This document shows, piece after piece, positions 1 to 40,793 of a DNA stretch of 48,923 bases. A model generated the notes under the pieces. That model made no database searches. It had not been told where the DNA came from and saw nothing but the letters and a program-made list of their open reading frames with translations. Source of the stretch: Atractiella rhizophila (Eukaryota); contig MU271533.1 in NCBI GenBank assembly GCA_021432655.1, positions 1-48,923 on the forward strand, read 5' to 3'. A program made the position numbers and the translations under genes. Every line of letters starts with the position of its first letter. The first letter of the stretch is position 1.

Positions 1-1811
1 CCGAGATCCATTTCGACGCCCTTCCCTATCCGCTCCCAATCTCCCCAAAACCGTCGTTTCGCCTTCCTCCATCCTCTCTCCAGCAACCATGCACTGCCCA
101 TCACGCCGAATGATGCTGTGCCGATGGACGTGCTTGGTTCCACCAAGTTGACCCAGTATGCTGAGGAAGGAAGAGCGAGGGACATGAAGGAGAGGCTGTA
201 TGTTCGAATGAGCAGAAGCTGTGCTTTGCGATGGAGGGAAGAGAGAAGGTTGGAGAGTTGGACGCGGCGTGTCTGAAGGGGGTGATATAGTGAGTAAGGC
301 GTGAATGGCGGGAATGGTGGAAGAGAGCTGAGTAGTGCAGGGCTCAGAAGATAGCTTGAATGCGAATCAATGGTTCTTTTAAGAATTGTTGATTGGGAAG
401 AGAGATAGCCAAGTTGGAATGAAAGCTGTTCGACCCGTTAACTCTGAAACGACGTAGGAGGAAGGACATACTTCTACCTCCAAAGTGCGAAGATAGAGTC
501 CTTCCAGAGCGCTCTTCGTCTCCACTCCCAGATCGTCGCTCCTCCAAAACAGCTTGAACCACGCGAACCTCTTGTCCAACAGGTCCCCCAAGACCTCTTT
601 CGATCGCATGAATAGCCTGTCATCGACCACTAGACTTCCATCTTCGTCCACGCTGAAAACTTGGCAGATATCCTTCTCTTTACCCAAAAGCTCCGCCATC
701 AACCGATCGATAGCCTCCCGCTGTTCGAGTAACCATGCCCGCTGGGAGGCAGAGAGATTGGAGGTAAATTGTAATGCGGAAGAAAGGAGAAAGGGGGTTG
801 CTGAAGAGGAGGATGATATGTGTGAAAGCACGTCTTTGAGCTTCGTGAGGCCGGACGATGACAGTGAGGAAATGTCACCCGGTTTTTCAGCTAAGAGCTG
901 TGTGGATATTTGTAGTACTTGAGCGTTGGGAAGGATTGATGGTGTTACAGGGGAGGCATCTTCGAGGACGAGATAGAGCTGAGGAAAGTTGCGAAGAACC
1001 GAGAGGAGAGGAGAGAGGTGGGTTTGCAGTAGAGTCTGTGTCGACCCGCTAAGACAGAGAACAACCGCTTCAGAGCCGTAGATGACGTCTTCTACTGAAG
1101 AAAGTGTAGTGGTATCAGGACTCTCAACCACGGCTCCGAAATCTGGAAGATGAAGTTCTTGAATTTGGATATTGCTTTGGTTCAGCCATGGGTCGTTGAT
1201 TTGGAGATCCAAGTCTGAAGCGGATGGTTCTGAGGTGGAGTATCTGTAACACCATTCAGTCAGCCGGTTCTAGCGCTCTTGAGGGACACATACCCAATCG
1301 AGCACTTTTGAATGCCCTCTCCAAGATCGGTATATGACCGACTCCTGAGCAACCGAGAGTTCGTTTGGTCACTTGCCAAAGTATCTTCTAGTAAAGCGGT
1401 GACAATAGTCTTGCATTTCACAGCATCACCAAGAACTGCGATTTAGATCGCATTGAGAATCAGAAATTTAAGGCAGATAAACGAGCAAAGTATGTGCGAC
1501 TAACCAACTGTCTTGGACGGGAACGAGTCGCTCTCCTCCTTCCTGAGTGCAAGCTCAAGCCTCCTTTCCCAGCTTTCCACTTCTTCCTTATGCTTTTCTA
1601 CAGATTTGAATCCATGGGCTCTGTCCCCAAGATGAAAGCTCTTGACGCGTTCTTCTTGAAGGAGGAAGCGAAGGTCTTTGAGTGCGCGTTTGCGAATGAG
1701 TTTTGGAGGAAGAGCTATGGTCCTTGACGAGACGTCTCTCGAGCCATCTTGAGTGCCAACGAAGCGCACAAAACGACGCGTGATCGTTGGTCTCGGCTGC
1801 CGTGCTAACAT
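1..1811 (-). CDS. Mmc1-like fungal mitochondrial membrane protein; spliced, 3' end runs off the window
   Basis: ATG at 1811 opens an Arg-rich presequence-like MLARQPRPTITRRFVRF. Later exons give IVTALLEDTL, FAWFKLFWRSDDLG, LYHPLQTRRVQL..LHRKAQ and W..A..RFWGDWERIGKG, resembling the Mmc1 C-terminal domain. GT-AG introns at ~1437-1504, ~1247-1292 and ~427-470. Confidence 0.7.
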
Positions 1812-2740
1812 GAAAGTTTTTGAGTGCAAATGTTGATGAGGATTGAGCGGAACCTAGTTTCAAATAGCCATGTCTTTGCGCAGCATTTATTTCGCCCCTT
1901 AACTGGGCGAGGGGCTGACTGATGCTTCTGGAGCAACGACGAAGTGGTTTGGGTCTCAAAGTCCTGTGCAGTTCTCCTGCCAGGCACACAGGGCTCTGAA
2001 GGCGGAAGCTTTCATCCCAAAGTCGCTGAATCCCGCGGTAAGCGTCTTCACAAAAGATTGGGGCATGTTATGCTGATTGGAACAATCCGTGAAATCAGCT
2101 CTCAGTTGGAGTGACATCCTAGGCTCTCGCTCTCCACAGAAGGAGTGTCGGTACGGTCCAACCGCAGCTCCACATGCTTTAAGGAGTTGTGGTAAGTGTC
2201 TCTTTCTTGCGGTGGGGCAAAAGTTGAGAGTCGGTTTTGCATGGCCAGCTTTCTCATTTACGTTCTGTCGCACACCCATCATCCCGCTGTATCGTCAATC
2301 AGTCTCCCACAAAATCCACGATCGGAATCTTTCTTCCACAGACGGCGCCCCCGACACGCATTCAGTAGTTCGAGAATGTTGCAGTTTCCTCGAGATTGTT
2401 CGCTATCCCTCCTCTAGCCGCTTGTACCCTTGACTTTGGAGATGTATACGCACACCATATTGCTTCATTTCAAGTGGCCGCCGTAGGGTGGCGCATCGCG
2501 GAATGATTCGCAGACGGTCAGTATTCCTCCAGCAAAGTCAACGTCCATGCCTGGATCGCTGTGGATATACGGATTCTCTCTCTTGCTCTGGTAACTACCC
2601 ATCCCTCGACTACCGTCTTCGTACAATGGACACGCCACCCGAAGTACACGTTCCTGGACAATCCCGTCCTATTTCGTGGTCCTCTGCTCGTCCCATCGAG
2701 CTTTCGCTCCTCTCGAGCACTTCCGCTCACCGCGAGCAAT

Positions 2741-3010
2741 TCCCGTCTCGTCAACGCTGAGAGCTGCCCGTGCCTCTAAATCGACCTACCCGTCCAGTCA
2801 ACGGAGGAGTATCAGACTCTGAACCGACCACCTTTTCCCGTTTGGTCAGCGGTGGGAGATTCCAGAACTCTCGAAATCGACTACTTTGCCGTCTTGTCAA
2901 CGGACGGAGCCGCGCAGCTCTAAATCGACTACCCCTTCCCGTTTGGTCAGCGAAGGGAGTGCTTTGCCCTCCAAATCGACCCCTTCCGTATCTGGTCAAC
3001 GTGGAAGGAT
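2741..3010. repeat. Degenerate tandem array of 5 full units plus 1 partial unit (~43-51 bp), each able to form a stem-loop
   Basis: Units start at ~2741 (partial), 2774, 2817, 2868, 2918 and 2968. Consensus CTCY(n)AAWYCGAC-(pyrimidines)-CCGT-NNNGTCA-RCG-(purines)-GGA(G). Spacings of 43/51/50/50 are mostly not multiples of 3. Confidence 0.85.
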
Positions 3011-4429
3011 TGAAGCTTCATCTAGACTGTAGAGGACGCCAGCTTGCTCATCCTTTAGCACGGTCCTCCACCTGATACGTTTTTGCTCTTCGCGACGGGC
3101 ATTATTTTCCGCTCTGTTCGCCTGGTTCGACGATGGCTGCAGACTTCGATTCATCTGGTCAGATTATTCGGCCCCATCTGCAGGCTAATCATCCAAAGAA
3201 CCAACATCATTTGAAATACGTTCTCACAATCGGCTGTATCCACGCATCTCAGCCAGCTCATGAAGTTTCGAAAGGCGATCGCCAACCCGAAACGACCCCA
3301 ACTTTTCAAGATATCGCCCGGGTCGCCACGCACGACCCTTTGACCCCCGGCTCATCTCCCACTCGACGTATTTACATTCTGATCTATTGAGGAAGCAGTC
3401 GCAACCTCGCATTGTGCTCTGGCTCAGTGATTGGTTTGGAGCCGCCTGCTCCCCCACTCTTATGAGCTACCATCCGCGTACAGTCGAAGCTAGAAGCAAT
3501 AGACAGCTGTGTATGTACGAGATTGAGAACTTTGGACCTGATCTCCATGGACGACGGATGCTCTGTCAATCTGCATCCTGATCTCAGTGATGTGGTTCGT
3601 CCATCCTTTTTGGTTAGGGGAGAGTCGTTTATAGCTGACTTCCGACTTAGACTTGATGTTTCTCTCCGTCTTCTCGACATCGACAGCTTGTCCTATCACC
3701 TGTTAACCTTACCAAAACCGACCTCCGAGTAGAATCCTGCCCGTGTTTGCGCCTGATATTACCCTCTCGTGTGCGTTGATCATTGCCTACCTCTTGCAAG
3801 CTCAAACCGATGCTCTAGGCTGAATAGGCGCCAGAACGGCTCAATAAATGCCTCAAATATAACATGGGCACCGTCGTCCTCAGACTCCTACTCGAGATTC
3901 TGCAACTTTGAAATCCTTCAAGTTCTTCAGATCGTGATGAGCAACTCCAGCCTATCTTTCGAAAACTCGATCCATTTTCTCACCCCTTCATCAAAGAGAC
4001 TGCATTCCCGTCGAGCGATGGAGCCGACCGTAGACTCCCGCGCGAGTTTGACGATTCGCCATCCGACGCTGCATCCTTGCTCTCTCTCTTCGCAGAGGAG
4101 TTGCGGGTCAGATCGACCCGCTTAGAAGGATGAGGGTCTTTCTTTCTTGATGGAGGCTTTGTGGGGGCATGAGATTGGGCATTGGAGAAGGGAAGTTGGA
4201 GGAAGGAAGAACGGAGCTTTCATTCTATCGTCAGGTGCCTGGTTTACTCTTGCTTTTATGGGAGAAACAGCGCTGAAATGACCCCACAGCTATCGGGCGA
4301 GAATTTGATTGTTCCTGTACTAGCCAGCGTCATTTCAGTCGGTGGTACAACATGAAACGTCATCAATTTCGGAATCTATCAGTGCCATCTGTAGGATGAA
4401 AGTCGATTTAAGTCTCAACCAAAGTGCAG

Positions 4430-5647
4430 TCAATCTCTGTTCTGCTTCCTCCCAGCTTCATCATACTCTTTCACCTCCTCTTCAGTCAAACTCGGCCAGT
4501 TGTGGCTGAACACTTCCAAATTCTCTCTGAGCCTCTTTTCCTTATCCGTTGTCGTGACGGCAACGATGCCCTTTGCTTTGAGCCAAGCGAGAGCAACCTT
4601 TGCGTCATGAAGCATCAGCACCTAAGATCATTGAGACAGTGAGTAGATCACACCTGTCCTTGGTTTACCTCATATCCTACCTCCCCGCTCAAGCGTTTCG
4701 CAATCCTGGCTGCAACCTCATCAATGGGCCCACCAGGGTATTTGGTAACCTATCGTTGCCGACATTTCAACAAGGCTCGCGAAGAGGACTGCAAAAACGC
4801 ACGGGAGATAGAGGAGAGTAAGCCTCCCAACGGATCCCATATTCCCTGCCAAAGTCGACAGTCTCATCCTGTGTCGCGTGATTGTATCCATGGTATCTGA
4901 CTTGGTTGACAGAAGGAAGGATTGAAGCGATTTTGAGAAGAGGAGTGAGATCAGTAACGTTGTAGTTCGACACTCCTATAGATCTATTCTTCGTATTAGG
5001 CACTGAAAAGAGCAGAATCAAGAACAAACCGTGCTAGACCGCGACGCCTGAGAGACTCCATTTGTGGCCAGACTTTCGTAATATCTTCGACGAGGAACGG
5101 GAAGTGGAGGAGGTATAGGTCGACATAATCGGTTTGAAGCTGTAATCGTGAGCGTACATGAGTCGTTACACCATTCTAGTGAGGCAAGAGCAGACCTTCT
5201 CTAGACTAGCCTTCAGGTTCAGCTCCACATCCTGCCCTTGCAATCCATCGAATTTTGTCGTGATATAGACTTGTTCCCTCTTCAGACCACTAGCTTTGAT
5301 AGCAGTTCCAACGTTCTCTTCATTCCTATAGAATGCTGCATTATCTACACAAGGTTTTCAGTGATGATTCTAAAGATAACGAGGACACGGGAGTGCAGAC
5401 CGATGTGCCTCCATCCCGTCTTCAACGCAAGCAGCACATTATCCGTCACATTAATACCCTTCCATTCGCTTCCCACTCCGTATGCGGGGGAAGGAAGAAA
5501 GGTGCCATCGTTCAGTTCATAGAGTGTATGAGCAGGGAAGCGTGCTTGAGCTTGTGTATAGGAATGGAGGAGTGGGACTTGAGATTGGGAGGGTAGGGGG
5601 AAGGCAATGCCAAAGAGGGAGAGAGAGAACAGGAGGGGAGTCAGCAT
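4430..5647 (-). CDS. Aldo-keto reductase with an N-terminal signal-peptide-like extension; spliced
   Basis: Exons give PSPAYGVG, GWRHIDNAAFYRNE, VYITTKF, DYVDLYLLHFP, SIGVSNY, PSVNQV, AYSPL and VALAW. The D/Y/K/H tetrad is intact. Confidence 0.9.
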
Positions 5648-5899
5648 GGTGAAAAGTCGCAAAGAGAACAAAACCGTCTCAGATGATGAAGGATGATAAA
5701 GGTGGTGTTGGCGTGATTTCGCGCGATGCGATAATAATTCTGCTCAATTTGAATTGTTGCATCTGAGTTCGGCCCGCCTCAAATCGCGGTCGCGATAACT
5801 CTCTGATTGATGCGGCCTATACTCCTTATTCAGTTCAGGCCACTATAAAGTCATACAAAGGACTGAACGAAATGACAAAACATGCACCATTCTGCTACT

Positions 5900-10618: not shown

Positions 10619-10849
10619 TCAATGAAGGAAAGCAGAAAGCACATTCAATGGTAGTATTGCATACGTTCAAAACAATGTCTGGATGTAAACACGATGTACG
10701 CTCTTAATAAATATCTTGAATGGGCCTCTGTGTAAAAAATGAGTTCAATAAAGAAGCAGAATAAAGAAAGAAATGGACAAGGCACGTGATATGTTGTCGG
10801 AAACTCGGCCGGCACTCGACAGCTCAATCAAAGACTGAACAACGGCATC

Positions 10850-12126
10850 ATGGACGCGATAGATCCCTCTCTTCCATCTTTTGCTTCATTTCTGCCCAAT
10901 CCAGCTCCTCCTCCACCAGGCACAGAGCAAATCACGCTTCCCCTCGTCGACTGGGATGCTTGGTGGGCGGAGGAACAAACGAAACGGGCTTGGAAGATTC
11001 AGACGGTACGAGATGATAGGAGGGACCCGAATAGGGCCAGGAAGGAGCGTAGCAAGAAGGCTAGGGAGGAGAAGGCCGCTATGAATGCAAAAGGTGAGTC
11101 TTCGTTGTTGTTGATGAGGTTCCTCGGATGGCATTGGATGAAGGAAGTCGATGTGGATTGATGAAAATGTTACCGAGTTCCTTCGCCAAAATCAACATTA
11201 AATCATCAGGAAAAGACATCAGGAGCAGTTTGAATATGATTGCGCTTCTCAGGAACAACGTGTTCTCTCTTTCCTACCCTGTTTCATGTGCAATTTTTTC
11301 GTTCGTGGTGGCGAGGAGCCACCCAGGAAAACGATTCAAAGCTCAGAGCCACATTGTGCTAATAATGGTCTATGTATGATGGGTAGAATCTGACAAATAC
11401 TCGCCCTACCCTACTGACCGTCAACTCGGCGGAGCGAAGAAACGATATGACTGGACTCGCAACTACGTCTGTACTCGATCAGGAGTTCCACGAGGGAGAA
11501 AGTCCAAACCTTCATCCTCTCAGGAGGCAGCTACGAGCGAGCAAGAACTAAAAGTGGGCTGCAAAGCCCGTCTGGTGGTGCACAAGCTACATGGACAAGA
11601 GATGCTGCAGATCACGAAGTATGACGTGCATTCGGGTCATGATCCCGACGCGGACATGAAGGAGATGTGGGGTGCTCTTGGTGGATCAGCAGCAAGAGCT
11701 GGAGGATCTGGAGAAGGAGGACCAATACCTGGTTCGTTGGGTCAAATCCCAATCTCGACGGTGGATCATGCTCCGAGCGCGGCGAATCAGCGAATCGAGT
11801 CCTTCTCCCACGCTCAAGCACTCACTCATCCTCACACCCATAACAGTGCTCAACCAGAAGAGTTGTCGCTGCAGATGGAGACCGACATCCCCGTCGATGG
11901 TCACGAACCAGACATGGAATCCTACCTCGACCCCTTCCTCGCTGACCCACAAAACGAAAGTGATCCAGACTGGAGGTTGACGCGTGATAGCCTCGTGGCA
12001 CACTTGAAGGCGATTGGAGGCAGTATTCGAAGTGTCGCCGAGTGGGATATGGCTAGGGTGTCAACGGACGCGTTGAGAGAAATGACGAGCAGTGCCGAAG
12101 AATTGCGAGCGCTTCTTCATGTATAG
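10850..12126 (+). CDS. WRKY/FAR1-like (WRKY-GCM1 fold) zinc-finger protein, copy A; 2 exons, intron ~11094-11386
   Basis: The spliced product contains WTRNYVCTRSG...KVGCKARLVVHK...YDVHSGHDP (C..C..H-x-x-H), the pattern of FAR1/MULE-type DNA-binding domains. No transposase DDE domain follows. Confidence 0.7.
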
Positions 12127-13519: not shown

Positions 13520-13707
13520 AACTTTTCTTGATTCTGGTTAGTTCGTGGTTGATGCTGGTTAATGACAAGCACATGCAAGGAACAACCAAAACATGGTCCA
13601 AGGATCTCACCAATCAATCTTATTTCAAACGGCGGCCAGACCGCATGAGTCAGTGACAGCCCCAGCTTTCTTAAGGGTCCATTCATGGTCAAGTTGTGCT
13701 CCAAAAC

Positions 13708-15915
13708 ATGACCCAGCTCTTTCTTCCGCTGTTGTGCCTCGTGTCCTCGGGCTATGGAGCTCAGTTCCCTTTCAAGGCGTCTTCAAAACCCACTCTCATC
13801 AACCAGGAGCTCAGATCCTTCGTTGAAGCAATCCAAAATTTGACTGGGTTGCCTGGTATTGGATTGGGAGTCGTGAAACTCGTAAATGGCAGCTGGGTTG
13901 AAGAAAGTGCTGGGTTTGGGAAGGCGTCGGATGTCGAGGGACATGTTGTGGACGGAAACGTGAGCAGTTCCTCTTGCGTTCCTTGTTGAGAGCAATAACC
14001 TGATGCTGGGACTGAATTAGACACTGTTCAATATTGGGAGCAACTCAAAAGCGTTCACCGCACTTGCATATTCTTTCTTGCAGCACGAAGACGGAACGGA
14101 GTTCTCGTACCGTGAGAAAGTGAAGGATCTCCTCCCAGATTGGAACTTGGTCGACCCTGTGGCAGAAAGACAAGCTAGCGTCCTTGATATATTAAGTCAC
14201 AGACATGGCGTACCGAGGCATGTCATCCTCTTACGGGCAAAGAGTATTCTGAAACCTGCATCACAGGCATGACCTTGCTTATAGTCACGAAGATGATTTC
14301 GCGTCGAATCAACATAAACTCGGAGCATTGTATCCCTCAGCTGAGTTCAGAGAACAGTGCGTCTTGTTGTTTATTCCCTTAAAAAAGCTGAGGAGGTCCG
14401 CAGCTGGCAGTACAACAATATGATGTACGTTACGGCAGGGCGAATCATCGCTCTCCATTCTTCACATACTCCTCTTCATCCCCTAAACTCATCCAAATCA
14501 ATGGGAGATGATGCCTATCAATCCTTTATCCACAGCCATATCTTTACCCCTCTGCACATGGAGCACACGTCCTTCTCACCAGACCTCTACCCCGATCGAA
14601 TGGCGAAAGGCTACATGTTACTCTCGAACCGTACCTCCTTCGAGATCCCTTACGTTCCAGAAACCGAATCCGGACAGAGATACATCGCGCCCGCCGGAGG
14701 TATCATCAGCTCTCCTAATGACCTCAATATCTGGACCAAGTTTCTTGTGGATTCGGCGAGAAAGGCAGAGGGATGGTCATATACCTCCGAGGCTGATTTC
14801 CTTCGACCTGAAGCAGTACGCCTTTTACTTTGCAATCTATCATGGCAAACCCCGATGGATGAATAGGTGAAAGAAATGGTTTCTGGTCACATGGTTGGAA
14901 ACTCGAGAGCAGTCAACCCCTATGCTTCTTCTGAAATTTATGGAATGGCACTCTCGAGGCGTCATTACAGAGGAAAAGATTTGGTTTGGCACGGAGGTGC
15001 GTTTCGCTTGTGACTTATGTCTGCAACGAATTCTGACTGTTGAATCTCCAGGTGCCGTAGATGGTTTTGGTTCTCAAATTGCTTGGAGCCCGATGGAAGG
15101 GGTGGGTATAGTGGCACTCACTAACAATATGGGGTAAGTATCCCATTAAAATAGGAATTGTGTGTCTGAATGAAGAGCAGCGTCGGCAACCTGGTCGCGA
15201 ATTTGATTACATTGCGAGCCTTCGAGGAGCTAGTAGGCCTAGAACCTTTGATCAAATTGTCCGAATTCGAAGCTGCGTGAGGCTCTCTGCTACAGCTCCT
15301 CAAGTGAGGTATTGACAAGATGCGAACTATAGATCTGGCAACCAACTCGCTCAAATCTCTTCCGCTTACCCTATTTCTTCAATGACCGGACCAGCGCCAT
15401 ATCTTCCACCGCCCTTCCAAAAACAATCCCCAACGTCGAAGGTAACAGCTACCTGGACTGGGCCGTCCCTCCCTCTCTCCGCTTTCGAAGGAGTTTACGA
15501 ATCGCAAGGCTACGGCACAGCACATCTCTGCCTTGCCAAACCTCACCACTCCGCCCTATCCGCCTGCAATGACCTCTACTCCCACCGAAAAAACAGCACG
15601 CTGATCGTCGACCCTTCGCAAGAGGGGGAACCTGTGGAACAATCCCTGCTTCTGACCAAAGACAGCATCTGGTTCACCTACGCCGGTCTGTCGCAGATTT
15701 CGGAACGGGAGTTCAGAGTCGTTGAAGTGGCCAAGATAGTCGATTATAAGGGAGTCAAGCGCTCATTCGCAAGTGTAGAAAGCACAGACATGTTCCTCAA
15801 CTTCAAAATCGAGGGCGAAAACGTGGGAGGTTTCGCCATGAGTGGCGTTTGGGGAAGTGGTGCAGACGTGGAGGATGGAGGGAGAGAGGAGGCATATCTT
15901 GTAAAAGTGGGCTAA
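13708..15915 (+). CDS. Secreted beta-lactamase/transpeptidase-like serine hydrolase, copy A; spliced
   Basis: Signal peptide MTQLFLPLLCLVSSGYGA, TLFNIGSNSKAF (SxxK), LSHRHGVPRH, WQYNNMMY (YxN), PAGGIISS, WHGGAVDGF. Confidence 0.92.
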
Positions 15916-18794: not shown

Positions 18795-20851
18795 CTAATC
18801 GATCTTGACGAGGTAGTCTTCTACCGTGTCGGTTGTTACGTCGACGTCCTCTCCAGCTCCCCAAAATCCACCAGTCAGAGCCATTCCCTTCACTTGTTTA
18901 CCCTCCACGTCGAATATCAACTTCCAACCTAGTACCGTCACGTCGGTCAAGAAATTTCTCTTCACGCCTTTATAATCCACAATCTTCGAAGCATGTAGAA
19001 TTTGAAAGCTTTCTGGAGTTATTTGAACGAAACTAGCGGACGTGATGGAGATGCTGTCTTTCGTAATCAGAAGGTCAGCTGGATGTATCTGAGAAGGAGG
19101 ATCCATGATGATAGTGCTGTTGGAATTAAGGGCGTAGAGCGCTGTACAAGCAGGAAGGGGAGACGTGGACGGCCTGCAGCCATGAACGGTGCCGTATCCT
19201 TCGGATCGATAGGTTCCTTCGAAAGCATCGATGGGAAGAGAGAGACCGCTCCACCGGGGCTCAAAGGAAGGACGGTGGAGGGAAGGAAGTAATCCTGAGG
19301 GAATCGTTGTTAACGGCCCAGCCCATGGATTTGATGGGTAGATTGATGTAATGTTTTTCACAGACCTATGTATTCTCAGCTTGTTTGCCGAAAGCGTAGC
19401 GTTGCTGGGAGAGGGAAGACGCACATCAAGTTGACGACAGCTTCAGGACGAGGTGCCAAGCTGGTCAGCTCCTCAAACGCCTTCAAGGTGATGGCATTTG
19501 CAACAATGTTACCAATACTATGACCCGTCGTCATCAGTTCCCTCGAGCGGCTGCGAAACAAACCCCATAGTATTAACCAGGACCACGATGCCTATGCCTT
19601 CCATCGGGCTCCAGGCAATTTGAGACCCGAAACCATCAATTGCACCTGCAGTTATCGGTATTTCGTTTCATGAGCACAAGGCGTGTTGGTAGATGGTATG
19701 CCTACCTCCGTGCCAAACCAAATCTTTGCCTCGATAGCGAAACCTTGAAAATCCCATCCCATAAATTTCGGAGGAAGACAGCGGATCAGCTGCTTTGGAA
19801 CTGCTAATCATGTGTCCAGAGACCATTTCTTTCACCTGGATGATACAATTATTGAGAGATTCACACAGAAAAGCAAAGAAACGGCGTACAGCTTCCGGAC
19901 GCAATAAGTCTTGGTTTGAACCAAACGACAAACCTTCCGCCTTCCTAACTGAATCAATGAGAAACTTTACCCAAAAGTTCAGCTCTTTTGCTGAGCTTAT
20001 AACTCCTCCNNNNNNNNNNNNNNNNNNNNNNNNNNNNNNNNNNNNNNNNNNNNNNNNNNNNNNNNNNNNNNNNNNNNNNNNNNNNNNNNNNNNNNNNNNN
20101 NNNNNNNNNNNNNNNNNNNNNNNNNNNNNNNNNNNNNNNNNNNNNNNNNNNNNNNNNNNNNNNNNNNNNNNNNNNNNNNNNNNNNNNNNNNNNNNNNNNN
20201 NNNNNNNNNNNNNNNNNNNNNNNNNNNNNNNNNNNNNNNNNNNNNNNNNNNNNNNNNNNNNNNNNNNNNNNNNNNNNNNNNNNNNNNNNNNNNNNNNNNN
20301 NNNNNNNNNNNNNNNNNNNNNNNNNNNNNNNNNNNNNNNNNNNNNNNNNNNNNNNNNNTATCAAGCACACTGGCTTGTCTCTCCGCCACAGGGTCGAGCA
20401 AGCTCCAATCTGGGAGGAGATCCTTCACTTTCTCGCGGTACGAGAATTCAGTCCCGTTTTCGTGTTGCAAAAAGGAATATGCAAGCGCGGTGAACGCTTT
20501 TGAGTTGCTGCCTATATTGAAAAGTGTCTGTACCCAATCACAGCGTCAGCAACATGAGACTGTCACTCTCAATAAGGAGCACAAGAAGAAGCGCTCACGT
20601 CTCCCGTCCACGACATGTCCCTCAGCATCCGACGCCTTCCCAAACCCAATACTTTCCTCAACCCAGCTACCATTGACAAATTTCACGATCCCCAGCCCAA
20701 TACCAGGTACCCCTGTCAAGTTTTGAAGTGCCTCAATAAAGGATCTGAGCTGGGGGCTTATGAGAGTGGGTTCTGAAGCCGCCTGGAGAGGGAGCTGAAC
20801 TCCATGGGCTAAGGAAGTGAAGCATAAAACTGGAAGAAAGAGCTGGATCAT
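18795..20851 (-). CDS. Secreted beta-lactamase/transpeptidase-like serine hydrolase, copy B; spliced, interrupted by an N gap
   Basis: Colinear paralogue of 13708-15915 with the same intron positions: MIQLFLPVLC.., TLFNIGSNSKAF, GGVISS, VWHGG, KIVDYKGVKR. Confidence 0.9.
20010..20358. other. Assembly gap (349 N)
   Basis: Run of N inside beta-lactamase copy B. The equivalent stretch of copy A is ~510 bp, so the gap size is likely underestimated. Confidence 0.99.
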
Positions 20852-21102
20852 GTTTCGGAGAGCGTTTCGCCCATAACTCATCGAGGGGGGTTCAAGTTCT
20901 CGGCAAGACCATGCATGATATATGGGCTTGAGGAATGAACGTGACTATGACTCTTTGCGTCCGTCACCGCTCTTTGAAAGGTCTTTTCCTTTCTAGATAT
21001 ATGACCCGTTTCCATTGAAATTGTCTAAGAGTATTAATTAATCGCCAATGCAGTAGTAATCATACAAAACGAAAAAGAAAATGGCAAACATGCTTAGACC
21101 AG

Positions 21103-22394
21103 CTAGACACCGAGCATCCTTCTCAAGCCCTCTGCCCTGTTTACAATATCTCTCAAGTCCTCTGTCGATATCTTCTCTGCATCCCACTCGCTGACCGACC
21201 TTACGCTCTCCCCAACAGCCTTCAGATGGTCTACTAATACCTCTCTCGTCAGTCTCCAATCTGGATCGTTTCCAGCGGGAGGTTCGGCGAGGTAGGGATC
21301 AAGGTATGACTCCATGTCTGGTTCGTGGCCATCCACAGGAATGTCAGTCTCCATCTGTAGTGACAGCTCTTCTTGTTGAGCACGGTTGTGGACGTGAGGA
21401 TGAGCGAGAGCTTGAGCGTGGGAGAAGGACTCGATTCGCTGGTTCGCCGCGCTCGGAGCATGATCCACCGTCGAGATCGGGATTTGACCCAACGAACCAG
21501 GTATTGGGCCTCCTTCTCCAGATCCTCCAGCTCTTGCTGCTGAGCCACCAAGAGCACCCCACATCTCCTTCATGTCCGCGTCAGGATCATGACCAGAATG
21601 CACGTCGTACTTCGTGATCTGCAGCATCTCTTGTCCATGAAGCTTGTGCACCACCAGACGAGCTTTGCAACCCACTTTTAGTTCTTGCTCGCTCGTAGGT
21701 GCCTCCTGAGAGGTCGAAGGTTTGGACTTTCTCCCTCGTGGAACTCCTGATCGCGTACAGACGTAGTTGCGAGTCCAGTCATATCGTTTCTTCGCTCCGC
21801 CGAGCTGGCGGTCAGTAGGGTAGGGCGAGTATTTGTCAGATTCTAACCCATCATTCGTAGAGCATTATTAGCATAGCACAATATGGATCCTCTGGGGCCT
21901 GGATCAATTTCATCAAGTTGCCGCCAGCCACCAATGAAAAATTCATATTAAACTGAGTGGGAAAGAGAGAACACGTTATGGCTGAGAAGCACCATCATAT
22001 TCGAACTGCTCCTGATGGCCTGATGCCTTTTCATGGATGATTTCAATGGTTGATTTGGTGAAGGAGGTCAGTAACATTTTCATCAATCCACATCGACTTC
22101 CTTCATCCAATGCCATCCGAGGAACCTCATCAACAACAACGAAGACTCACCTTTTGCATTCATAGCGGCCTTCTCCTCCCTAGCCTTCTTGCTACGCTCC
22201 TTCCTGGCCCTATTCGGGTCCCTCCTATCATCTCGTACCGTCTGAATCTTCCAAGCCCGTTTCGTTTGTTCCTCCGCCCACCAATCCTCCCAGCCGATGA
22301 GGGGAAGTGAGATTTGCTCTGTGCCTGGTGGTGGAGGAGCTGGATTGGGAAGAAATGAAGCGAACGATGGAAGAGAGGGGTCTATTGTGTCCAT
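21103..22394 (-). CDS. WRKY/FAR1-like zinc-finger protein, copy B (inverted paralogue of 10850-12126)
   Basis: Near-identical protein over the N-terminus and zinc-finger region with a divergent C-terminus; same intron position (~21844-22150). Confidence 0.75.
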
Positions 22395-22719
22395 GTCGTT
22401 GTTGATGCAACCGAGCATTTACAGAGCACGTGATACTCACCGACTGGGTTTCTTCCTTTTCGTTATTTATCATGGGAGGTCGTGTCTCTTGTGCCTCTTG
22501 CCTTATCTTCTATCATCACAATGGCAAGATGCAGTTGTTCGTTCTTGCCCGCTGAATTAGCTTTGTTCCACATTGTCTGGTCAATATGAATATTGAATGT
22601 GCTGGCAATGGTCCCCATCCCAAAACTGTCAATGCGTTTCCACACCTAACCCACGTCTACGACGGACTCCATTGAAAACCGAACGAAGTTGCATGCCCGA
22701 CAAAATATTAATCCAAAGA

Positions 22720-35621: not shown

Positions 35622-37415
35622 CTAGCCTTGAAACTCTTCGCCTCCAATTGGTGGCCATTCTGCTCTGAACTCTCCTCCCAAATAGTCGACCATTCCAACA
35701 CTACGATAGATCCATACTTCGCCCTGTTGCATTCCAGATAAGTTGTAAGTTTGGCGTTTAGGAGCCTTTCCAAGGCTCTGTTCTATCACTTCCAGCGAAC
35801 CAAAGGAAGTCGGCAGAAGCGTGTCACCATCGTTTGGAGGAGATCCCGATGACAAGGTGGGCGAAGAAGTGGAAACAACAATCGCGGTATGCTTCCAGAA
35901 TTTTAATTTTCAGCTGTCAGAAGAACGGAAAAGAGAAGCAGATGAATGCGTACGTCAGGATTTCCTAATGAGAACGTGGTGAATCCATCCTTAATGGTCA
36001 CTCTTCGCCACTCGACAATGTCACCACGTCTCACAACACCATCTCCGCCGCGCCATCGTCCAACCGTACCTTCTCCGCCAACACGGCCATAGTAGATCCG
36101 ATGGCCATGACAACGTCCTGTGGAATAGGCAGGCTCAGGCATGTCCGGATACGACTTCTGAATGTCCCGGATGGCTTCATTGGCCATATCCCAACATTCT
36201 CCTCTGCCGACAGGGCGTCCTTCAGCCTCAGCACGCTCCGCAAACTGGGCAATTATCTCTCCAAAACTCTCTGCCCATCCAGCTAGCAATTCACCGTCCC
36301 ACGGTTCAGGTATGGGGCGATAAAGGCCTTCCTTCGAAGCAATGACTCCAGTCCGTGTATCGAAGGCGACGCGATACGTGATTCTAGAGCAATCTTCGAA
36401 GATAGCCGCACCAAGAACTTCCTTGCTCGTTCCTCTATGGGACCACGAAGCCGTCCACATCATGTCTTGCCGATTAACAAGAATCGGAGGGAGTGGGTTG
36501 TCGGATTGATACCAGTTTTCCGACGGGGACCAAGCTGAGGAAAAGTACTCGGAGACTGTACGAGCTGAGCAAGTATGTGGATCTTCAGGGGGGAGTTCCA
36601 CCGTCTGGGTGGTGGACAGTGCCGGAGTGGAGGACTGCGACGGTCGTGCCCAGAGCACGGGAGGTGGCTGTCAAACGTTATATTGAGCATCACAGCGTAC
36701 AAGTCGAGATGATATGAACCACGCACAGCGTCGTCGTGAGCAACCTCGCGTTCTGCTGGTGCTTCTTCTTTCTTTCCCCACCTACTCTGCAGTGAAGAAG
36801 CGATACCCGACGCCTTCTCTGTCAATCCTGCAGGGATCTTGGATGTCAGTGAGCTCTTCGGTCCATTGGAATTTGACGGAATAAGTTGTGAAGAGGCGGC
36901 AGTTTGGGATTGTGCTGGCGCAGAATCGGACCGAATGAGGGTGTAACCACGAGAGTTGAAGAACTGACACATTTTTGAGCAAGCTTCAGGAGAACTTGAA
37001 AGAATTGTCTCACCTCGTCGAGGAGCGAAAATAAGCCTTGCTTCTCTTCCACAGACAGATTCCGAAAATCGATCTTTCCTTGCCCTGTCTGCGGCTGGTA
37101 GGAGGAAGTGGAAGCGAGTGGAGTGGTTGGTCTGAATGCTGCTCTCGGTGCAGCTGGTGGCGGAGGCGGTTCTTCAGTTGATTGGACTGTGTTCGTCGAG
37201 GCAGGAGGAGGAATGGCAGCCTTCCGTGTCGGAGGTGGAGGCGCTGGCTTCTTTCCAATAGGTGGCGCATCGGGAGAGTGGACGGATGTAGGTCTACCAT
37301 AGGATGTGTCGCCTGAGTGAGGGGAAGTGTGACGATCTTTCCACGCGTTTGCTTTCTGCGCTCCGGAAGAGGCAGCATTCTGAGCCGCCGCTCGTAGTTC
37401 TGCAAATGTTGGCAT
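35622..37415 (-). CDS. Proline-rich protein with a C-terminal BBC1/AIM3-type cysteine-proteinase-fold (CHAP/NlpC-like) domain; spliced
   Basis: N-terminal PPPPP tracts; C-terminal VGRGECWDMA, RRGDIVEW, LGNPD|HTAIVV, LEVIEQS, GEVWIYR. Confidence 0.75.
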
Positions 37416-39050
37416 TGTGTATTAACCGGGATTTACCTGCAAAGGTTGATGTCAGTGACTATGATCATGGATCCGATTTAGGCACGTTCATTCTTTTGGC
37501 ATATGCACCGTGAAGCAAAAAAAAAAAGAATAGAATGTCGTGAATTCGTTCATTAGTATGCAAACGAAAGGGATGATGTTCTATAGCTGGTTCTATAGCA
37601 ATAGAGAACGGGTGAGAGCGACGAGAAACCTTGCCCTCATTTCACGTGACAAGGGACAGCTCGCACTCCCCACCAGCAACCGGTAACCGGTCAGTCTTCA
37701 TCCAACAGCACCAGATGGTCCCATATCTCTTTGCTGCACAATTGAAGCAAAAAGTTTAATCGAGACAGATCAAGGTGTACCAAGTATCAAAATGCTTGCG
37801 CTTTGTCAGAGGCCGAGCAGTGGCGGAACCACTACCATCCGTTGAAGGAGGCACAATTCTATCTGATCATCTCATTATACTGTCATAGATGCGCAAACAA
37901 CGATAGCGAAACACCCATAGTACTCGGTCAATTAATGTAACAACCTGTGATCCCGTCTTTCAACTTCGAGATTGAGGAGCATCTTAAATCGCAAATCGAA
38001 CGAAATAAGGTAGTCAGGATACACACCGTAGCGAGATGACTTTGATCCAAGGTTTCCCCTTATCCTTATTCTCTGTGTTGCACTACTGTCTTCGTCGTCT
38101 GTAGTTTCGTGTCGTTGTTCAAGTTGATCGATGATCTGTGGCTGATCTGTGCAAATTCCGAACGCCGGATTAGGTAGTTCCGTCGTCATTCTCAAAGGCT
38201 GCAGGCAACGCTTCCCGCTCAGTCCTCAAGGCCTCAGGCCTCAGGCTCCATGCCAGGCTTAAGCGCTTCAGGCAAATTCTGGCACTGCGTGTTGCTACTT
38301 CATGGGCCACATCAGTTAGGGTAGGAGCACAGGTACATCATAGAGACTCCTTTCTAAGCAATACCATACGGCCAACTTCATGTTGAATGATACACATCGA
38401 TGGACGTGGAGCCCAAAAACAACTACCCTCCAAGTCACCCAATAAAGAAACCACAAATTTGAGGAGGAAGGAAGGGAGAAGGATGAATGGGAACATGTAA
38501 AGGTCAGGGTTATTTATCACATATTTGATATCGATACGAAATGAGAACTGATTTCCGAGCGTTTGAAGGTAACTATGTAGTTGAAGAATTGAAGGTATTG
38601 ATGAAGACGAATGGAAGATGAAACATGGTTGACATATTGAATAAGGGTAAAGAAACCGGATATTCCTTATAACAAACATTGATACTGATTCCAAATCCAA
38701 CAATCCACAAGAGAAATTTGACTTACACACTCTCCACCGCTTCCTCCTCTTCGAGATTCGGATAAGCAACGATAGATAACGATAGTCTATTGCTGATGGT
38801 CCGGATTCGCAATCACCAACGCCATCTGGACAACGTCCGCTCCCAACCCTGGACTGCCTTCAAAGCTTCCATCCTCGACCTTCTCTCCAAAGCCCTCAGG
38901 CGGTGTACCGAGGGCCACGCTGGGTGGTCTACTTCCCAAAGCGATGTCCATGGCTAACCTCTCCGGGGTCATCGGCGTCGGTGTGCCTCTCAAGCTCCCT
39001 CTGCCGCCTTCCAATCCGTCAACGTCGATTCGTCTCCTTTTCGCTCCTCG

Positions 39051-39094
<44 letters not shown>

Positions 39095-40793
39095 GTGACG
39101 ATCTTTCCACGCGTTTGCTTTCTGCGCTCCGGAAGAGGCAGCATTCTGAGCCGCCGCTCGTAGTTCTGCAAATGTTGGCATTGTGTATTAACCGGGATTT
39201 ACCTGCAAAGGTTGATGTCAGTGACTATGATCATGGATCCGATTTAGGCACGTTCATTCTTTTGGCATATGCACCGTGAAGCAAAAAAAAAAGAATAGAA
39301 TGTCGTGAATTCGTTCATTAGTATGCAAACGAAAGGGATGATGTTCTATAGCTGGTTCTATAGCAATAGAGAACGGGTGAGAGCGACGAGAAACCTTGGC
39401 CTCATTTCACGTGACAAGGGACAGCTCGCACTCCTCACCTTTAAGCGGTCACCGGTCAGTCTTCATCCAACAGCACCAGATGGTCCCATATCTCTTTGCT
39501 GCACAATTGAAGCAAAAAGTTTAATCGAGACAGATCAAGGTGTACCAAGTATCAAAATGCTTGGGCTTTGTCAGAGGCCGAGCAGTGGCGGAACCACTAC
39601 CATCCGTTGAAGGAGGCACAATTCTATCTGATCATCTCATTATACTGTCATAGATGCGCAAACAACGATAGCGAAACACCCATAGTACTCGGTCAATTAA
39701 AGTAACAACCTGTGATCCCGTCTTTCACCTTCAAGATTGAGGAGCATCTTAAATCGCAAATCGAACGAAATAAGGTAGTCAGGATACACACCGTAGCGAA
39801 ATGACTTTGATCCAACGTTTCCCTTTATCCTTATTCTCTGTGTTGCACTACTCTGTAGTTTCGGTTTCGTGTCGTTGTTCCAAGTTGATCTGTGGCTGAT
39901 CTGTGCAAATTCCGAACGCCGGATTAGGTAGTTCCGTCGTCATTCTCGCTGCAGGCAACGCTTCCCGCTCAGTCCTCAGGCCTCAGGGCCTCAGGCTCCA
40001 TGCTAGGCTTAAGCACTTCAAGCAAATTCTGGCACTGCGTGTTGCTACTTCATGGGCCACATCAGTTAGGGTAGGAGCACAGGTACATCATAGAGACACC
40101 TTTCTAAGCAATACCATGCGGCCAACTTCATGTTGAATGATACACATCGATGGACATTGAGCCCAAAAACAACTACCCTCCAAGTCACCCAATAAAGAAA
40201 CCACAAATTTGAGGAGGAAGGAAGGGAGAAGGATGAATGGGAACATGTAATGGTCAGGGTTATTTATCACATATTTGATATCGATACGAAATGAGAACCG
40301 ATTTCCGAGCGCTTGAAGGTAACTATGTAGTTGAAGAATTGAAGGTATTGATGAAGACGAATGGAAGATGAAACATGGTTGACATATTGAATAAGGTAAA
40401 GAAACCGGATATTCCTTATAACAAACATTGATACTGATTCCAAATCCAACAATCCACAAGAGAAATTTGGCTTTACACTCTCCACCGCTTCCTCCTCTTC
40501 GAGATTCGGATAAGCAACGATGGGTAAGCTTATTGCTGATGGTCCGGATTCGCAATCACCAACGCCATCTGGACGACGTCCGCTCCTAACCCCGGACTGC
40601 CTTCAAAGCTTCCATCCTCGACCTTCTCTCCAAAACCCTCAGGCGGAGTACCGAGGGCCACGCTGGGTGGTCTACTTCCCAAAGCGATGTCCATGGCTAA
40701 CCTCTCCGGGGTCATCGGCGTCGGTGTGCCTCTCAAGCTCCCTCTGCCGCCTTCCAATCCGTCAACGTCGATTCGTCTCCTTTTCGCTCCTCG
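37325..40793. repeat. Direct tandem duplication: copy 1 at 37325-39050, copy 2 at 39091-40793, joined by A42 (39051-39092)
   Basis: The two ~1.7 kb copies align end to end with only scattered SNPs and small indels. Each carries the 5' end of the AIM3-like gene and the 3' end of the Rua1-like gene. Confidence 0.97.
38787..39181 (-). pseudogene. Chimeric junction fragment: duplicated first ~30 codons of the AIM3-like gene, poly-T, then duplicated last ~87 codons of the Rua1-like gene
   Basis: MPTFAELR..KDRHT followed by the A42 run, then RGAKRRRIDVDG..NPDHQQ* in a different frame. Confidence 0.7.

Follow-up and report, generated by a model that had tools for sequence, protein, structure and literature searches.

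We asked what kind of element lies near the start of contig MU271533.1 of Atractiella rhizophila, where a row of short, similar blocks occupies positions 2741–3010, and in what form it might act. The window, meaning the whole stretch of 48,923 nt that was analysed, begins at the contig start (assembly of 51.5 Mb in 1,998 contigs, from a basidiomycete); its genes are fungal in character and rich in introns. A 100-residue fragment encoded by an eIF2-beta exon has a rust fungus (75%) and Rhodotorula (69%) as its best named matches, which suggests a basidiomycete, perhaps one of the Pucciniomycotina. A first-pass annotation, made from the letters alone, had described the blocks as a non-coding array of covarying stem-loop units, probably acting as a + strand RNA of no recognised family.

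The repeat array and its locus

The array of five full units and one partial unit with shared motifs was confirmed on the + strand at 2741–3010, where the units run head to tail with a period of about 49 nt. The leader A-W-Y-C-G-A-C was located five times (at 2779, 2822, 2875, 2923 and 2974) and the element CGT-N3..5-GTCARCG six times (GTCA at 2750, 2797, 2845, 2896, 2946 and 2995). Partial unit 0 (2741–2763; CGT-CTC-GTCAACG, without a leader) is followed by unit 1 (2774–2809; the shortest, with a linker L1 of 4 nt), unit 2 (2817–2858), unit 3 (2868–2909), unit 4 (2917–2960) and unit 5 (2968–3008; with a 5-nt insert before GTCA), units 1 to 4 being delimited by the pattern, a covariance model and the drawn fold described below. 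Successive loops are spaced by 47, 48, 51, 50 and 49 nt and successive leaders by 43, 53, 48 and 51 nt; the earlier statement that the period is mostly not a multiple of three holds only loosely, since 4 of the 9 spacings are such multiples. The distance from leader to loop word varies from 11 to 16 nt.

The combined leader-loop pattern occurred in the whole window only within the array and only on the + strand, and its strict form matched seven times in the genome, always in the array or its allele (control, 0). One such unit arose once in 20 million letters simulated with a second-order Markov model of the window, so that five within 270 nt are far beyond chance. The covariance model built from the five full units recovered those units and unit 0 (13.5 bits, E 0.06), and nothing else in the window scored above 10.5 bits; the best match outside the array (3354–3397, + strand, 10.5 bits, E 0.57) belongs to the exon that carries the array and could be a decayed unit. 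Tandem Repeats Finder did not report the array. The array is a product of tandem duplication in which 18 letters are kept per unit and the linkers drift.

The array locus has one second genomic copy, 99% identical and on another contig, which we read as the allele. Within the window, the array lies between two minus-strand genes that are about 2.5 kb apart. One is Mmc1-like (379–1811, with a putative start at 1811 and a provisional lower end; weak match to Pfam PF23868, E 8.6e-5, below the cut-off; joints in run X19) and is divergent from the array-bearing RNA; the other encodes an aldo-keto reductase (4314–5650, limits approximate; Pfam PF00248) and is convergent. Both carry CT-AC joints, as expected for minus-strand genes. 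Elsewhere in the window are a direct duplication of about 1.7 kb (37325–40793, 96% identical, with a run of 42 A between the copies) and two inverted duplications that include paired ORFs (10838–11948 / 21281–22403, 90% identical; 13699–14189 / 20359–20860, 81% identical, with an assembly gap at 20010–20358).

Searches for relatives found no distant homologue beyond near-identical strains among metagenome contigs, viral contigs and the organism's own genome. The two-unit pattern, which misses relatives with different motifs, picked out 43 stretches of metagenome contigs, each having two loop motifs at most in its vicinity, with a single blastn match (E 0.22) among them; we read these as chance, and the best of the 28 that were scored by a sequence model reached 18.8 bits, compared with 29.8–38.8 for the allele units. 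The one-unit pattern gave at least 119 stretches in viral contigs, with one match each among the 80 listed, and these also look like chance. In the own genome the dispersed loop motif gave 452 matches versus 631 for the control, and the leader-plus-loop pattern outside the array was not enriched (35 versus 36 for the control); 20 genome sites (18 of those 35 plus 2 loop-motif sites) scored at most 12.7 bits against 47–53 for the units.

A spliced host RNA and its variants

The first-pass annotation had suggested looking for transcription, and a spliced transcript covering the array locus was found in four public runs. These were the 4 of 24 candidate runs that were compared with positions 1200–5000 (X1, X4, X7 and X19; one from each of four studies); X4 is on record as a root metatranscriptome, two were guessed to be RNA and one is unlabelled, and splice joints were seen in all four. 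No weight is given to the word shares (0.21–0.26) of the other 20 runs. The source of X4 places the host RNA outside the laboratory. The contigs put the array inside a transcribed stretch of about 2100–4340, giving a host transcript at 2100–4343 on the + strand (spliced length about 2.0 kb, or about 2,030 nt; ends approximate, with X4 reaching 1948) that contains no coding ORF. Its introns are all GT-AG and measure 48–57 nt: intron 1 (2192–2248, 57 nt; joint in X4, X7 and X19, i.e., 3 of 4 runs), intron 2 (3595–3650, 56 nt; X1, X4 and X19), intron 3 (3771–3827; two acceptors 9 nt apart and in frame, 3818 in X1, X4 and X19, and 3827 in X7 and X19) and intron 4 (4235–4289, 55 nt; X19, and in X1 and X7 as a joint with the next exon letters between). 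The contig joints define a 1.35-kb exon 2 (2249–3594) that holds the array. The 3' ends of this RNA and the convergent aldo-keto reductase transcript overlap at 4314–4343 in run X19.

In two runs, contigs extend from one side of the array to the other (X7, 2722–3321; X1, 2689–3024). Since no single contig links the array to a splice joint, one molecule read on the + strand across the array is inferred from the chain of overlapping contigs and from the GT-AG joints up- and downstream. The proposal of a transcribed, non-coding + strand RNA was thereby supported. Its original basis, the T-G variant pairs, fared less well: the U-G pairs are present, but structure alone gives no strand, and it is the splice sites that do. 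An antisense RNA as the working molecule is disfavoured: the minus strand folds better (swap rank 9 of 120), but all transcript-internal joints are GT-AG on the + strand, the contigs themselves being unable to show strand. In X19 the five listed pieces of the host RNA had contig depths of 951–2600 versus 64 and 189 on two neighbour genes; contig depth measures expression poorly, so this is only a hint that the host RNA is abundant. The X19 pieces on the flanking genes had no other letter relative to the window. In X4 and X7 these genes lacked cover, to which we attach no weight.

Two further features of the RNA were noted. Immediately before the array (2637–2736, + strand) lies a group of short hairpins that folds better than any other 100-nt window along the RNA (z -3.42), and several run variants cluster there. 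A telomere-like word lies in intron 2 (3613–3621); its minus strand resembles 8 nt of template, probably by chance.

The statement that no convincing gene overlaps the array was upheld, as the overlapping frames had no coding signature. The longest ATG frame of the window allele has 85 codons, a length reached by 54% of 300 shuffles, and the RNA contains 21 ATGs. Seven single-base indels fall in exons among the four runs (2668, 2932, 3172, 3173, 3344, 3507 and 3545); each long frame through the array or its flanks contains a single-base indel and has more changing than silent variants (listed variants only, 86 further variant rows lying outside the count). The last long frame (3757–4125) has no listed indel, with 4 silent versus 7 changing variants. 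The coding tests covered peptides of at least 25 codons: Pfam gave no match for any transcript frame among 15 ORFs, frame 3820–4122 had no homologue candidate in the protein collection, and frame 3912–4130 (73 codons) had no match in the Atlas. The allele carries G3769A, which creates an ATG spanning intron 3 and thereby gives this last frame 102 open codons; this start is absent from the window allele. The host RNA does not look coding. It thus shows the generic attributes of an lncRNA, being transcribed, longer than 200 nt and free of a coding signature, with its continuity as one molecule resting on the contig chain noted above.

The number of units also varies. An X1 contig passes directly from 2749 to 2896, a step of exactly three periods (47+48+51), so that a 146-nt stretch (2743–2888, + strand) is missing from a second form in which unit 0 is fused to unit 3, the breakpoint being ambiguous within the shared repeat. 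In X1 this short form had a depth of 19.8 versus 15.2 for the full form, and the single-base deletion at 2932 also had 19.8. A contig of X19 has a loose end at 2889 that corresponds to window 2727–2742, the same junction as in X1. We take the short form to be a second haplotype, one that has two full units plus a partial one; alternatively it could represent a reverse-transcriptase jump between repeats, the evidence coming from runs with splice joints. The spliced host lncRNA of about 2 kb and the form with three fewer units are new here, and both had been missed by reading the sequence alone.

Folding and constraint of the units

We examined if the units fold as first described. The covarying lower stems were not borne out: on the + strand the units' own 5' and 3' halves paired no better than swapped halves (ranking 54, 73, 43 and 33 among 120 permutations, depending on which of four folding methods was used), and the pair count of the CGU/RCG hairpin was reached in 90 of 500 shuffles. 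Both tests used the five paralogous units, and parts of units 1 and 5 are misaligned by MAFFT. All 3 runs that cover position 2787 carry a variant there that disrupts the cct/agg stem of unit 1; at 2836, a variant makes the lower stem of unit 2 more stable by 1.8 kcal/mol. Folding of the + strand was no better than that of shuffles (z -0.03 for the array as a whole and between -0.44 and +0.56 for its six units), and the minus strand folded better in units 4 and 5 (z -1.70 and -2.42).

The other pairings that had been pointed out are present. The extended complementarity of GAC and GGTC was found in units 2, 4 and 5 (the GAC/GUC helix being extendable to 5 bp in units 2 and 4), the outer CTCY/GGAG stem exists as described, and a pseudoknot together with the outer stem could be drawn in 5 of 5 full units. 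RNAalifold chose the outer stem plus GAC/GUC; the GAC/GUC pair count was reached in 166 of 500 shuffles. The drawn fold has an outer CUC/GAG stem of 3–5 bp, a GAC/GUC helix of 3–5 bp and a CGU/RCG helix of 3–4 bp, with an invariant A between the inner helices, a crossing loop of 1–4 nt and a free linker of 4–8 nt; over the five units a longer GAC/GUC helix goes with a shorter crossing loop. By our own reasoning these loop lengths are sterically possible. Of the 18 invariant letters, 14 are paired in this drawing and the other four (A-A, C and A) are free, with the variable parts falling in loops and spacers; on the + strand every R can pair with the U assigned to it, and every Y with its R. 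Two such inner helices were obtained from shuffled invariant letters in 2.0% of 20,000 trials. A compact nested pseudoknot per unit is plausible but unproven, and was drawn post hoc.

A different register places A-A-Y-C-G-A-C opposite G-U-C-A-R-C-G in 5 of 5 units, giving A.G, A.C, Y-R and C.A followed by G-C, A-U and C-G; the Y-R facing pair is C-G in unit 2. The two A-C appositions become G-U on the minus strand, which accounts for the better minus-strand folding; on the transcribed strand, their pairing would require protonation. With a nearest-neighbour model and longer context, units 4 and 5 form one long hairpin (2934–3008) with pair probabilities near 0.99. Units 2, 4 and 5 share the loop word UGGUCA, which is complementary to itself if G-U pairs are counted and could allow loop-loop pairing. 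Downstream, a stable 7-bp hairpin at 4103–4121 (+ strand, z -2.80) contains the two motifs of the units with their order reversed (GTCAG before ATCGAC); about 0.03 such reverse-order motifs are expected in 2 kb from genome counts.

Constraint on the letters was assessed against identity-matched neutral simulations (974 run; a simple model with a star tree and uniform rates). The 10 adjacent pairs of invariant columns (mean 3.8) were reached by 1 of 208 simulations, which indicates that the kept letters come in blocks, and the total of 17 invariant columns was reached by 12 of 208. These letters may be held by selection on the RNA. Avoidance of them by the listed array variants is weak (1 of 8 hits an invariant letter, about 3 expected, P 0.15); the one hit is G3001A in unit 5, found in the allele and all four runs, which removes one CGU/RCG pair. 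The array shows no reduction in variation relative to the remainder of the RNA (in X7, 18 of 599 letters differ).

Proposed function of the array

We give an even chance to the reading that the array is a multivalent protein-docking array, like those of NORAD or CsrB, in a fungal lncRNA. Each unit of about 40 nt would fold, probably only with a partner or Mg2+, into the compact nested pseudoknot, with the invariant A-A-Y-C strand staying free; a cellular RNA-binding protein would recognise the shape of the pseudoknot plus the free letters; and one RNA would hold three to six copies of the protein, making it a possible decoy or scaffold, as NORAD is for Pumilio. A row of docking sites is favoured because helices of 3–4 bp are too weak alone, the units appear additive and partly dispensable, and there is nothing near the array to switch in cis. 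The occurrence of a form shorter by three units at similar depth fits additive, modular sites; that the loss of three units is tolerated counts against docking. Of the three functions originally offered, protein binding fits best; a small-RNA precursor or an efficiently self-cleaving array fits less well, as the contigs that span the whole array argue weakly against cutting into monomers or efficient self-cleavage. A decoy predicts like elements in its target RNAs, and none were found above chance, which argues against the decoy version of docking, bearing in mind that degenerate sites would be missed by this comparison.

The units could instead be neutral, i.e., a decayed minisatellite within an lncRNA exon, whose apparent structure is a by-product of one ancestral unit. 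We regard this as unlikely, though it accounts for folding scores of about zero, for the lack of significant covariation, for a copy number that varies, for a count of invariant columns not clearly above neutral (12 of 208) and for the lack of a homologue among metagenome or viral contigs. It does less well with the blocks formed by the invariant letters (1 of 208, though the neutral model is simple), and with kept letters that form complementary triplets (2.0%) while the spacers and linkers differ in length and sequence.

Slightly less probable still is that each unit senses a ligand or pH as a switch, or is a slow ribozyme, with two folds: the pseudoknot and the long imperfect hairpin. Aptamers and ribozymes typically contain small nested pseudoknots. 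About 0.1–4 kcal/mol separates the competing folds, and 5 of 5 units share the facing pattern, in which there is one double change (C-G, unit 2), but such a double change has 1 chance in 3 (166 of 500). Protonated A-C mismatches with raised pKa drive switches in HIV-1 TAR, according to passages of PMC12714568, and provide a precedent. Rfam gave no match to the array even at E 10 and no hammerhead core was found; contigs run through the array, weakly against efficient cleavage, and neither an ORF downstream nor a splice site near the array offers itself for control. A combination of docking and switching receives the same low credence: a sponge of 40-nt nested pseudoknots might flip to the hairpin with two A-C appositions, capturing or releasing a protein or ligand by pH or metabolite, with a copy number that differs between haplotypes.

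The array might also work as DNA, through composite sites (CCG-N9-CGG-like arms around GTCA plus AYCGAC) that drive the lncRNA or the Mmc1-like gene. Invariant short words, free linkers and the lack of a folding signal are what such sites would show; we nevertheless consider this a doubtful reading, marginally behind switching, since the array lies about 640–900 bp downstream of the transcript start and within a transcribed exon, the words stand at 11 to 16 nt from one another, the word pair shows no enrichment in the rest of the genome, and every degenerate position stays pairable as RNA. Least probable is an mRNA with a very long leader in which the array controls a small 3' ORF (62 codons at 3937–4125, or 102 codons in the allele): the splicing is mRNA-like, the acceptors of intron 3 keep the frame and no indel is listed there, but this stretch has 4 silent versus 7 changing variants, no Pfam match or homologue candidate, a 102-codon start missing from the window allele, 21 ATGs in the RNA and an overlapping 73-codon frame that is without Atlas match.

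The RNA is of practical interest. Few fungal lncRNAs have a known mechanism; here the module is small, repeated and mutable, so that a single 40-nt unit can be probed, pulled down or crystallised, and natural haplotypes with six and three modules would provide a dosage test. If the pseudoknot holds, it would be a new RNA fold.

Comparison with known RNAs

The array was not assigned to a known family, as the first-pass annotation had stated: Rfam gave no match at gathering score in the window and none at E up to 10 in 2200–4500. A tRNA-derived or transposon repeat was rejected on the finding of only two, allelic, copies in the genome and on the lack of any tRNA in the window. A hammerhead array was rejected with no CUGANGA...GAAA core in the spliced RNA, a snoRNA host with introns of 48–57 nt that are not large enough, and a snoRNA guide, or other pairing with or mimicry of the organism's own rRNA, with 15 antisense matches of at least 10 nt versus 11.1 for shuffles (longest 12 nt). 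Compared by eye, a tRNA-Asp codon-anticodon mimic, a She2p zipcode, SRP helix 8, an Ire1 loop, twister and HDV did not fit.

Among bacterial systems, ToxI-type type III antitoxins consist of about 5.5 tandem, near-identical 36-nt pseudoknot repeats, each of which binds one protein, the adjacent toxin cutting the monomers. The present array resembles them in its roughly 5.5 tandem repeats and in the small pseudoknot that can be drawn for each; it differs in that the repeats have diverged, there is no adjacent nuclease gene and no sign of cutting, and Rfam gives no match. CsrB and RsmZ are sponges made of short modules with variable stems and an invariant GGA in hairpin loops, and they act additively. 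A row of short modules with an invariant word is shared with these; here, in contrast, GGAG lies in the 3' strand of the drawn stem and the host is a spliced eukaryotic RNA.

Among fungal RNAs, no paper on the array-bearing RNA was found in a literature search of main texts that took in few subscription journals; the main text of a 2025 review of fungal lncRNAs contains neither "stem-loop" nor "basidiomyc" (PMC12566771), and a screen for structured fungal RNAs covered five ascomycete genomes, as stated in part of PMC8216456. The telomerase RNA of Ustilago maydis is, from passages of PMC9564094, longer than 1 kb, made from a spliced precursor and equipped with a pseudoknot, and like the host RNA it is a spliced basidiomycete lncRNA of more than 1 kb; the genome has TTAGGG arrays, but no template word occurs on the spliced + strand, and this identity was rejected. 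meiRNA of Schizosaccharomyces pombe, an lncRNA of 0.5–1.5 kb, binds Mei2 and Mmi1, and Mmi1 recognises repeated UNAAAC (excerpts of PMC6789587); its decoy role appears in the title of a reference in PMC12566771. Both are fungal lncRNAs, meiRNA being one that binds RNA-binding proteins; its sites are hexamers in an ascomycete RNA specific to meiosis (same excerpts of PMC6789587), whereas the array has candidate structured units of 49 nt. A Mmi1 decoy of the meiRNA type was rejected, with UNAAAC at 0 in the spliced RNA.

A Pumilio decoy was likewise rejected, with 0 UGURUAUA sites in the spliced RNA, and NORAD itself, the RNA whose way of working the proposed array would most resemble, is compared here for its architecture. 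It is an abundant lncRNA with tandem-duplicated units that have kept motifs and stem-loops, as described in sections of PMC4947167. NORAD has 12 units of about 300 nt in mammals (same sections of PMC4947167), whereas there are 5.5 units of about 49 nt here, in a fungus, at one locus and its allele. In NORAD, tandem duplicates keep short motifs and predicted stem-loops as the rest diverges (PMC4947167, in the same sections). The fungal units likewise keep short motifs between drifting linkers, and the many sites for one protein that we propose for the fungal array would be the arrangement found in NORAD.
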